The position numbers and the translations under genes were made by a program. Below the pieces are notes generated by a model that saw only the letters and a program-made list of their open reading frames with translations, did no database searches and was not told the DNA's origin. A DNA stretch of 24,668 nucleotides from a virus. Taxonomy: Duplodnaviria; Heunggongvirae; Uroviricota; Caudoviricetes. Positions 6,701 to 15,600 of the stretch are shown here, in pieces (positions within the stretch are counted from its first letter, which is position 1; every line of letters starts with the position of its first letter). Location of the stretch: positions 1 to 24,668 of the IMG/VR virus record IMGVR_UViG_2563366840_000014. One strand, written 5' to 3'.

Positions 6701-7063
6701 TTAATGACCTGCTGCGCGGAGTTTTCCGTCAGGTTCACCGGCAAGAGTCAGTAATTGTCCCTGGTCTTCCTGCAGAATAGTCAGGCGACCACCGCGATTG
6801 ACATACATCGGCGTTTCGGTGGTGTCTTCTTCGGAAATTTTCCCGCGGTTAGTCGGGCGAACATATGAGAGTTTGTGTTTGATTTTCACACGGTTCTCAT
6901 CAAATGGTTCGATTTCCAGGTTGAGTGAGACCTTACCTTTGGTTTTCGTGTTCATCACACCGGAAGCGACTTCACTGAGAACTGCGCCGATTTTGGTTTC
7001 AAATACGCCGCCGTCCAGCTCCCCGATAAATTCCTGCACGTTGGTACTGCGTTCGCTAGCCAT
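6701..7063 (-). CDS. yfdP: YfdP-like protein (120 aa)
   Basis: Start at internal Met (MASERSTNVQ...) with GAGGAG RBS; the upstream 106 codons of the listed ORF are GC-rich and Arg/Cys-rich with no RBS. Confidence 0.65.
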   Translation of the reverse strand: MASERSTNVQEFIGELDGGVFETKIGAVLSEVASGVMNTKTKGKVSLNLEIEPFDENRVKIKHKLSYVRPTNRGKISEEDTTETPMYVNRGGRLTILQEDQGQLLTLAGEPDGKLRAAGH

Positions 7064-7111
7064 TTTGCTGCTCCTCATCATATCGACCCTGCAAGGTCGG
7101 TTGGTTTCTCC

Positions 7112-7320
7112 ACAAAACAGAGAAGAACACCTGCGGTGGTAGCCGCCCGGATGGATTGGGTTATGAGCCCGTCGTCCGGTGATGCTCTTCTCTGTTTTGT
7201 AAAAAGAGCGGTACCAGCCGGAAGCAAGTGTACAAACTGGTACCGCGAGGACTACACACAGCATAAAGTTGTGGTGCCGGGTGCCTCCCGGTGCCTGGCG
7301 AAGGTTGCACACCAGGCGGG
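7112..7320. ncRNA. GC-rich cluster of stable hairpins upstream of yfdP (candidate structured RNA or leader)
   Basis: 15-bp perfect stem 7112-7126 / 7186-7200; 10-bp stem 7208-7217 / 7237-7246; shorter stems at 7278-7290 and 7293-7317; overlapping ORFs on both strands look non-coding. Confidence 0.35.
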
Positions 7321-7500
7321 TGGGTATCCACAGAAGGTCGACTGTCAGCCTCAACCTTAACCCGCGTGCGCTGAGCCGCATTCACCACAACGCTAAGGAT
7401 TCTCTCTGGTTGAAAATACTTAGCTGTTATGTGCCTGTCTTTTCACCACTTCAGGCTCGGTGGTATCCTTTTAAGCCCGTATACATAAAAGGAAAATAAA

Positions 7501-7746
7501 ATGACTTTTGATGAAAAAGAACTTGATAATGCAATTAATAAAATCATCGTAACGTCGCTCTTTTCCTGTCTCAGCGACACTCAGCAGAAACAGTTCTACG
7601 AATCGGCTTTCAACATGATCGAGCGTTGTTGTTTCTGCGATGCCGACGAGTTACCTGAAAAAATCAGGAAACAGTTGGCTGATGCTCTTCGAGTGCGACT
7701 TTCTGACCAATTTTCTGAAATGTGCTCTCCGAATTTGGACAAATAG
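7501..7746 (+). CDS. Hypothetical small protein (81 aa), AT-rich, opposite in direction to the early-left operon
   Basis: AGGA RBS 9 nt before the ATG; imperfect hairpin downstream at about 7755-7785; 3' end overlaps the convergent 7664-7939 ORF. Confidence 0.45.
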   Translation: MTFDEKELDNAINKIIVTSLFSCLSDTQQKQFYESAFNMIERCCFCDADELPEKIRKQLADALRVRLSDQFSEMCSPNLDK

Positions 7747-15572: not shown

Positions 15573-15600
15573 CCTCGCTTCGGCGGGGTTTTTGCTTTTC
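15573..15600 (+). terminator. Rho-independent terminator (tR'-like)
   Basis: Imperfect GC stem CCTCGC / GCGGGG around TTCG loop, followed by TTTTTGCTTTTC. Confidence 0.6.

Follow-up and report, generated by a model that had tools for sequence, protein, structure and literature searches.

What is the GC-rich cluster of long hairpins that lies just upstream of the gene yfdP in a lambdoid prophage, and what might it do there? The prophage in question is a stretch of 24,668 nucleotides (nt) from a Caudoviricetes virus (IMG/VR record IMGVR_UViG_2563366840_000014, positions 1 to 24,668), which we refer to as the window and which is an SfV-like lambdoid prophage. An original prediction, made from the sequence letters, had proposed a candidate structured RNA at 7112-7320 in the leader of the early-left operon and could assign it to no known RNA family. 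We find a non-coding structured stretch of about 340 nt in the transcript of the early-left promoter PL, between orf33 and yfdP. It consists of three modules in fixed order on the PL-sense strand: a domain of the STnc100/PasD type, an intrinsic terminator (T1) and a long hairpin (LH). In other words, this is a known Rfam family in a new context, and several of the structural features and relatives described below do not appear to have been catalogued.

A known RNA family in the early-left transcript

The covariance-model search that had been suggested as a check returned RF02076 (STnc100) as the sole match at gathering level from Rfam 15 in the whole window. The match lies on the minus strand at 7421-7199, spans the full model (1-206) and scores 49.1 bits (E = 5.8e-08; threshold 47), which overturns the statement that no family could be named. 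The hallmarks of the family are present: a 5' UGGUGAAU and the 3' core CACCGGGAGGCACCCGGCACCA are joined by a closing helix, P1, and the invariant 22-nt core occurs exactly and once in the window, at 7293-7272. Downstream stands the terminator typical of STnc100, here a GC-rich 10-bp stem followed by UCUUUUUAC.

What had been described as one cluster of hairpins is instead the 3' part of the STnc100 domain, its intrinsic terminator and a separate long hairpin. The individual stems had been seen correctly. Both the 15-bp perfect stem (7112-7126 with 7186-7200) and the 10-bp perfect stem (7208-7217 with 7237-7246) are real, and the two shorter GC stems correspond to helices P4 (7317-7310 with 7300-7293) and P5 (7291-7287 with 7281-7277). 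The predicted span thus takes in the 3' strand of P3, P4, P5, the 3' strand of P1, a linker, T1 and LH; the structured stretch as a whole is larger, running from about 7424 to about 7084. Its GC content is indeed above that of its neighbours (0.55-0.58 over 7100-7400, against 0.37-0.50 in the flanks).

The 15-mer inverted repeat is the single one with a loop of up to 100 nt in the 24.7-kb window, compared with a mean of 0.005 in 200 dinucleotide-preserving shuffles. Six 10-mer repeats with loops of up to 30 nt were observed where 0.8 are expected, and at least one other of these is the cI terminator. The 15-bp repeat widens to 25 nt at 84% Watson-Crick complementarity, the remainder being G-U pairs on the minus strand. 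Because it is only on the minus strand that G-U pairing lengthens the long stem from 15 consecutive pairs to 25, the strand of the RNA is fixed as minus. The minus-strand fold of 7105-7425 has a free energy of -141.7 kcal/mol (z = -6.35), which together with the lack of conservation of the overlapping reading frames bears out the proposal of a structured non-coding RNA. The plus strand folds less well (-129.8 kcal/mol, z = -4.19), and a plus-strand RNA was rejected on this ground and because G-U extension of the stems is limited to the minus strand.

The order of PL, orf33 and yfdP places the hairpins in the early-left operon. The original prediction was right to put them upstream of yfdP in the leftward early operon; they are not in the immediate PL leader, since orf33 intervenes and the structured region lies some 630-940 nt downstream of PL. 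We searched the minus strand between the element (7400) and PL for a sigma-70-like promoter and found none, so that a promoter belonging to the element itself seems unlikely. This result, and the conservation of the hairpin P0 in front of the domain despite sequence change, argue for read-through from PL. The surrounding 437 nt (7064-7500) are 97.5% identical to Shigella phage SfV. At least 80% of this stretch is held by 1,814 of 5,426 complete E. coli genomes, with identities mostly of 95-99% across all matching records.

Fold and covariation of the domain

The core domain is built from five helices and a pseudoknot (Table 1). Scanning IMG/VR for the exact core returned at least 120 contigs, which reduce to about 55 distinct representatives of what we call type A. 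Within a 30-sequence alignment the outer pairs of P1 covary (GC in 16, AU in 11, GU in 3, broken in none), and so does P2, which appears as CCCC/GGGG, CCUUUC/GAAAGG or UGCG/CGCA. As MAFFT and RNAalifold were unable to align P4 and the pseudoknot, we used a search based on anchors: with P5 as anchor, the P4 hairpin was located in each sequence, and pairing of its loop with the stretch after P2 was compared with that of shuffled loops. The pairing recurs at the identical position in 38 of 53 representatives (p ≤ 0.05) and is made by at least 13 unrelated covarying sequence pairs, among them AAGGUUG/CAACCUU (the window), CCAGUC/GACUGG, CUGGUG/CACCGG and AGACUGACAAA/UUUGUCAGUCU; P4 covaries too. 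The P4-loop pairing is therefore a covarying pseudoknot, and it is missing from the Rfam consensus line. The compensatory changes across related prophages that had been named as a check were found in P1, P2, P4, the pseudoknot, T1 and LH.

With classical STnc100 the window element has in common the 5' sequence, the closing helix, the core and a Rho-independent terminator about 30 nt downstream. It differs in its P2 (UGCG/CGCA, against CCCC/GGGG), in an extra helix P3 and in its place. Classical STnc100, PasD1/PasD2 and EcOnc27 are small RNAs of Salmonella, enterohaemorrhagic E. coli (EHEC) and enteropathogenic E. coli (EPEC) prophages that lie in the late region, where classical copies have their own promoter and stand near Q (PF03589), stx2 or lysis genes. 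The window copy, in contrast, is early-left and has no promoter of its own that we could detect.

Table 1. Features of the early-left region, in window coordinates
Feature	Coordinates	Strand	Remarks
cI	8826-8173	minus	first in minus-strand gene order, followed by the cI terminator, PL, orf33, the structured region and yfdP
cI terminator	8130-8152		one of the other 10-mer inverted repeats of the window
PL, early-left promoter	8086-8057	minus	TTGACA-N18-TACATT; operator repeats on its flanks match those between cI and cro (OR)
Truncated type B copy	8046-7961	minus	first 86 nt, one mismatch to the mEp460 element, then breaks into orf33
orf33	7939-7664	minus	
P0 hairpin	7392-7424	minus	GCUAAGUAUUUUC / GAGAAUCCUUAGC; abuts the domain; a different ST64B sequence forms the same hairpin
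STnc100-family core domain	7391-7268	minus	124 nt; Rfam match, exact core, five helices
P1, closing helix	7391-7383 / 7276-7268	minus	GUUGUGGUG / CACCACAAC
AAU joint	7382-7380	minus	
P2	7380-7377 / 7370-7367	minus	UGCG/CGCA
P3	7365-7360 / 7321-7316	minus	
P4	7317-7310 / 7300-7293	minus	
P5	7291-7277	minus	CCGGG-AGGCA-CCCGG
Pseudoknot	7301-7358	minus	AAGGUUG 7358-7352 with P4 loop CAACCUU 7307-7301
Linker	7247-7267	minus	contains conserved GCUGUGUGUAGUC; kept among relatives
T1, intrinsic terminator	7246-7199	minus	10-bp stem GCGGUACCAG / CUGGUACCGC, 19-nt loop, tail UCUUUUUAC; from inverted repeat and fold
LH, long hairpin	7200-7112	minus	25-bp base stem (15 bp perfect), branched tip; from inverted repeat and fold
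Joint after LH	7100-7111	minus	GGAGAAACCAAC; conserved; downstream modules vary between phages
Small hairpin	7084-7099	minus	directly before the yfdP ribosome-binding site
yfdP	6704-7076	minus	entry span; ATG at 7063; Shine-Dalgarno GAGGAG 7076-7071

The terminator and the long hairpin

A terminator follows within 120 nt of the domain in 93 of the 112 non-redundant type A copies. The stem and U-tract of T1, together with LH, are retained in e14, ST64B and two further relatives, L242 and L256. Compensatory changes in T1 and LH occur in L242 and ST64B, and L256 forms an equivalent long hairpin from unrelated sequence, followed by the same UGGAGAAC joint. The stem of the small hairpin before the yfdP ribosome-binding site likewise differs in sequence in ST64B, L242 and L256 yet still pairs, as judged by eye and unscored. 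RNAalifold pairs the U-tract of T1 with a conserved GUGGAGA, which extends LH to about 32 bp (7207-7105). With 25 consecutive pairs, up to 32, and conserved as a structure, LH looks like an RNase III cutting site, and we predict that it is cleaved.

A long hairpin adjoining the domain is a family-wide feature, often of 19-21 consecutive pairs made by unrelated sequences; in many copies the partners are the 21 nt that lead up to GUUGUGG and a segment lying 30-120 nt upstream of them. The 3' arm of LH with the following GUGGAGAA resembles CAGUGCUCUUUCCGUUGUGGUGAAU (by eye); the most plausible reading of LH is thus a 5' hairpin left from an additional unit that a mosaic joint has truncated. The same family-wide arrangement weakens the case for a boxA or Nus-factor site: GUGCUCUUUCC is the 3' arm of the long hairpin in many relatives, and unrelated sequences stand there in other copies, so that the likeness to boxA is explained without such a site.

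Similar duplexes are familiar from other phages. LH shares with the lambda N-leader stem and the RNase III sites of phage T7 the form of a duplex of at least 25 bp that closely precedes a ribosome-binding site of the PL operon. The lambda stem has no conserved domain inside it; unlike it, LH follows a terminator, and its cleavage is a prediction.

A mosaic module comprising T1, LH and the yfdP leader is 98-99% identical in mEp460, cdtI and Stx2c phages, with a joint at 7246. Past the GGAGAAAC(U/C)AA joint come yfdP, xis or other genes, depending on the phage. The DNA motif GTGGAGAAAC(C/T)AAC occurs twice in the window, after LH (7100-7113, minus strand) and at the 3' end of a cII-like gene (9712-9725, plus strand), and may mark a junction at which modules are repeatedly exchanged.

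A sister form of the domain

In mEp460 and the Stx2c phages the mosaic module follows another domain, a sister form that we call type B, which in mEp460 reads GUUGUGGUG-AAU-GCGCAGGCUGAUGCGC, a variable insert, and GCCGGAGAUCAGCACCGG-(U/C)CACCACAA. The window itself retains a truncated type B copy that begins about 4 nt after the predicted PL start, and its break into orf33 looks like a recombination scar. Scans recovered many copies of the domain (GUUGUGGUGAAU-GCGCAGGCUGAUGCGC...GCCGGAGAUCAGCACCGGCCACCACA; L125 2853-2990, L228-L343, L345 2003-2140, L346 2012-2245), and an Rfam search over the type B copies gave no match. The P2 loop GCUGA is complementary to the last loop, UCAGC, in 41 of 50 unique copies, with one clear double change (ACUGA/UCAGU).

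Type B is found in several kinds of setting. In PL leaders that lack N, the same linker and a terminator come after it. In lambda-like N leaders it is enclosed by the long stem, GCUUUGGGGUGUGGUG...CCACCACACCACCAAAGCUAACUGACAGGAG-AUG, and one of the downstream proteins begins MDAQARRRERRAEKQAEWKAANPLL. It also adjoins tRNA genes. In all, 209 phage records contain the 5' half of type B; among them are virulent Klebsiella siphoviruses and Magnus, an Ackermannviridae phage that has an STnc100 match too (52.9 bits). BUCT610 carries two tandem units after a promoter. Lambda's own N leader has a homologous outer stem with a different interior. The long stem of that leader is known as lambda's RNase III site, reported by Steege et al. 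1987 and Kameyama et al. 1991.

Two otherwise unrelated virulent Klebsiella phages have a stretch in common upstream of their type B units (L345 ~1740-1830, L346 ~1720-1810). It contains frames resembling tags of transfer-messenger RNA (tmRNA), ANEEMYLAVA* and ANDDVVLMAA*, and gives a weak alpha_tmRNA match (E = 0.0014); ARAGORN found no tmRNA there.

Classical units in the late region

STnc100 is reportedly among the most often annotated bacterial 'small RNAs', and no function has been established in the literature for STnc100/PasD. EDL933 has 11 copies that are transcribed in lysogens, one of them detected on a Northern blot, and copies with their own promoters yield discrete RNAs of about 160-210 nt in lysogens (PMC5331693). 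These discrete products imply that STnc100 units stop at their own terminators. The relatives PasD and EcOnc27 are bound by Hfq, and in EPEC few Hfq-bound RNAs are more abundant than PasD, which is encoded near Q. A copy downstream of stx2 overlaps the Hfq-binding EcOnc27, and in a machine-learning study its variants predict haemolytic uraemic syndrome.

Could the domain serve in loading the Q antiterminator? We rejected this role on the evidence of two leaders. The window's own Q is followed by a short PR' leader without the domain. Another phage sequence, L066, has a Q gene (PF03589) and then a normal PR' with a lambda-type AACGATGGG pause signal and a short tR', while a separate STnc100 unit, with a TTGACG-N18-TAAATT promoter, the domain from about +1 and a terminator, follows at a distance of about 1 kb and immediately precedes the holin. 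The domain is thus not part of Q loading. The PR' leader of the window (15487-15600, plus strand; TTGCAT-N17-TAGGAT) comes directly after Q, has a lambda-like TAACGATGGG pause signal and ends in a terminator; the Q protein encoded there also bears a DnaJ-type zinc finger.

Where a promoter is close by, its geometry is strict: the distance from the end of the -10 box to the domain is exactly 6 nt in 17 of 19 promoter-proximal copies. A rule that the domain is always 5'-terminal receives partial support, as only 54 of 163 non-redundant copies have a nearby promoter or long hairpin by the definitions that we applied.

Lambda has a vestige of such a unit. Its late leader (L344 484-610, equivalent to lambda 44783-44909) contains a long hairpin, CACAACAGGUAAGAGCAUUG...CAGUGCUCUUUCCGUUGUG, directly after tR' and upstream of gene S, with a vestigial unit, GUUGUGCUGAAU...UCACCAA, beside it. 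The lambda PR'-tR' late leader (6S RNA) and StxS resemble the window arrangement in being early-terminated leader RNAs before a phage operon that can persist as small RNAs. They differ in that 6S RNA and StxS are transcribed from a constitutive late promoter, with Q providing read-through, whereas the window has the repressor-controlled PL and no known antiterminator.

Reading frames over the RNA

Several reading frames are drawn across the element. K-12 annotates ymfH over the e14 copy, a YmfH-like open reading frame (ORF) lies on the minus strand of the window at 7388-7161, and two ORFs, 7139-7357 (plus) and 7081-7227 (minus), match phrog_3651 and phrog_33599. These annotations, the PHROG matches and a phenotype reported on overexpression of a ymfH clone could be taken to mean that the stretch encodes a YmfH-like or a phrog_3651-like protein. 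We consider this highly improbable. The e14 copy is 91% identical to the window and differs in its core by a 1-nt deletion and a G-to-A change; the indel shifts the ymfH frame, so that the ORFs measure 75 aa in the window and 103 aa in e14 and their C-terminal halves differ. The plus-strand ORF (7136-7360) matches just the second half of a 162-aa PHROG profile and is split over two frames in the window. Differences in T1 loop length between relatives are not multiples of three, variation tracks RNA pairing and not codon structure, and these ORFs have no ribosome-binding site, a point on which we agree with the original prediction. As the frames are not conserved, the PHROG matches look like spurious ORF families; ORF calling over an RNA has probably produced K-12 ymfH and at least two PHROG families.

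The ymfH ORF of e14 (L124 3579-3890) overlies the decayed RNA copy, T1 and LH. The published retron toxin trigger phenotype of ymfH might be an effect of the RNA and not of a protein.

Possible mechanisms

The roles suggested by the original prediction (an antitermination signal, a regulatory RNA or an mRNA stabiliser) are all candidates. The most likely mechanism, and one on which our own judgement is evenly balanced, is a terminate-and-process checkpoint that precedes the early-left genes. Any polymerase stopping at T1 would release an RNA of the STnc100 type, made up of the structured 5' domain, the linker and a terminator hairpin with its U tail. This is the usual build of an Hfq-bound small RNA. 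Its relatives are abundant Hfq-associated prophage RNAs, and the released RNA may bind Hfq and act on targets in trans. RNase III would cleave the read-through transcripts within LH and so free the yfdP...xis-int message from its structured leader.

Several observations weigh against such a checkpoint. The STnc100 score of the window is just 2 bits over the threshold, and the copies of SfV, ST64B and e14 fall below it (39.5, 35.1 and 29.2 bits). With its large 19-nt loop, T1 may terminate poorly. The e14 genes on both sides of T1 and LH (ymfJ, ymfH, xisE and intE) are listed as one co-regulated set, which points to substantial read-through. RNAs that base-pair with the help of Hfq do not usually contain a pseudoknotted domain of such high conservation, and the checkpoint leaves this feature unexplained. 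Finally, N leaders, virulent phages and the neighbourhood of tRNA genes harbour sister copies that have no terminator at all, so that 'small RNA with a terminator' cannot describe what the domain does at its core.

The main alternative is that the RNA acts in cis as a processive antiterminator, like HK022 put in action and unrelated to it: once folded, the domain would remain associated with RNA polymerase and take it past T1 and LH into the early-left genes. We regard this as unlikely. Among the ORFs and PHROG-family matches downstream of PL none encodes an arginine-rich, N-like protein, and orf33 has no such motif. A lambda-type nut site with N was rejected for this reason, while the same absence suits an antiterminator made of RNA; against this, the domain is also found in phages that have N and nutL. 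T1 and a second strong hairpin precede all early-left genes, and the co-regulation of the e14 genes flanking T1 would follow from read-through. A copy of the domain sits immediately behind the start site of PL, although in the window this copy is truncated, and nearly all promoter-proximal members keep the fixed promoter spacing. A complex fold conserved in many unrelated phages suggests a host machine as the target. On the other hand, copies with their own promoters give terminated, discrete RNAs in lysogens, unlike the read-through of put, and some units stand directly before lysis genes, a position at which an RNA that antiterminates its own transcript would be lethal.

HK022 putL and putR are, like the window element, structured RNA between an early promoter and the first terminators of a phage without an N gene. 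They are about 70 nt long with two stems, compared with about 124 nt, five helices and a pseudoknot here. We located both in HK022: the STnc100 model does not match the PL/PR region of that phage, and blastn with putL finds HK022-like phages only and none of the SfV group. Homology to put was accordingly rejected, and we keep it as an analogy.

Another alternative, which we also think improbable, places the function in the message itself. The domain would become the extreme 5' end, either by transcription starting at it or by an RNase III cut in the adjacent long helix, and would then tune or protect the downstream message (its stability or translation) as a cap or a refolding element coupled to processing, and not in trans. 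The constant distance from the promoter is consistent with this, as are the overlap of the long hairpin with the 5' strand of P1 in many copies, which allows alternative pairings, the extended P1 stem that directly precedes the N ribosome-binding site in N leaders, and Shine-Dalgarno-like GGAGG motifs in the P5 loop. Yet about two thirds of the non-redundant copies lie outside the promoter or long-hairpin criteria, and in the window a terminator separates the domain from yfdP and LH is downstream of the domain, not upstream. It could also be that the element is a decaying relic, left over from recombination of leaders and functionless in this prophage. The truncated copy behind PL, the likeness of LH to the 5' hairpin of a third unit that was truncated after GUGGAGAA, and the damaged core of e14 might be read in this way. 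We find it quite unlikely, because the 22-nt core, P1 and the pseudoknot of the window are intact, the stretch is widely carried by E. coli genomes at high identity and compensatory changes keep its stems paired.

A possible common fold in phage RNAs

Looking beyond the checkpoint, we tentatively consider that the STnc100 domain and type B are one widespread phage RNA fold that acts on a conserved host machine (RNA polymerase, ribosome or RNase), an idea that we rate as possible, well short of probable. The parts of this fold may be the GGUGAAU joint, the closing helix, a pseudoknot or kissing loops, and an adjoining RNase III-type hairpin, and its users may include temperate lambdoid, P1-like and fully virulent phages. 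The spread of the domain over unrelated phages suggests a host target. A device of RNA only for antitermination or RNA protection, unrelated to put, is one possibility. If the common fold is real, the PL leader of the window, with domain, terminator and genes, is a natural test bed for it.

This locus adds early-operon leaders to the places where the STnc100 domain is known, and a covarying pseudoknot to its structure. Also new are the sister form outside Rfam, which lambda-like and Stx-type phages carry in their N leaders and which virulent Klebsiella phages carry as well, the vestige in the lambda late leader and the regular pairing of the domain with an RNase III-type hairpin. The question thus moves from partners for mRNA pairing to the conserved host factor that the fold binds during phage transcription.

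Neighbouring features

An 81-aa ORF with a good ribosome-binding site (7501-7746, plus strand) converges with orf33 (7664-7939, minus strand) and overlaps it by 83 nt. The two belong to a separate PHROG family each and are annotated in K-12 as ymfI and ymfJ. Just after PL, e14 (L124 2790-2850) and ST64B (L126 2665-2725) have another leader in common, ACAGGCAGGACGCCCACGAAGUAGCC...GGGAUGAUUCG, which the window does not have.

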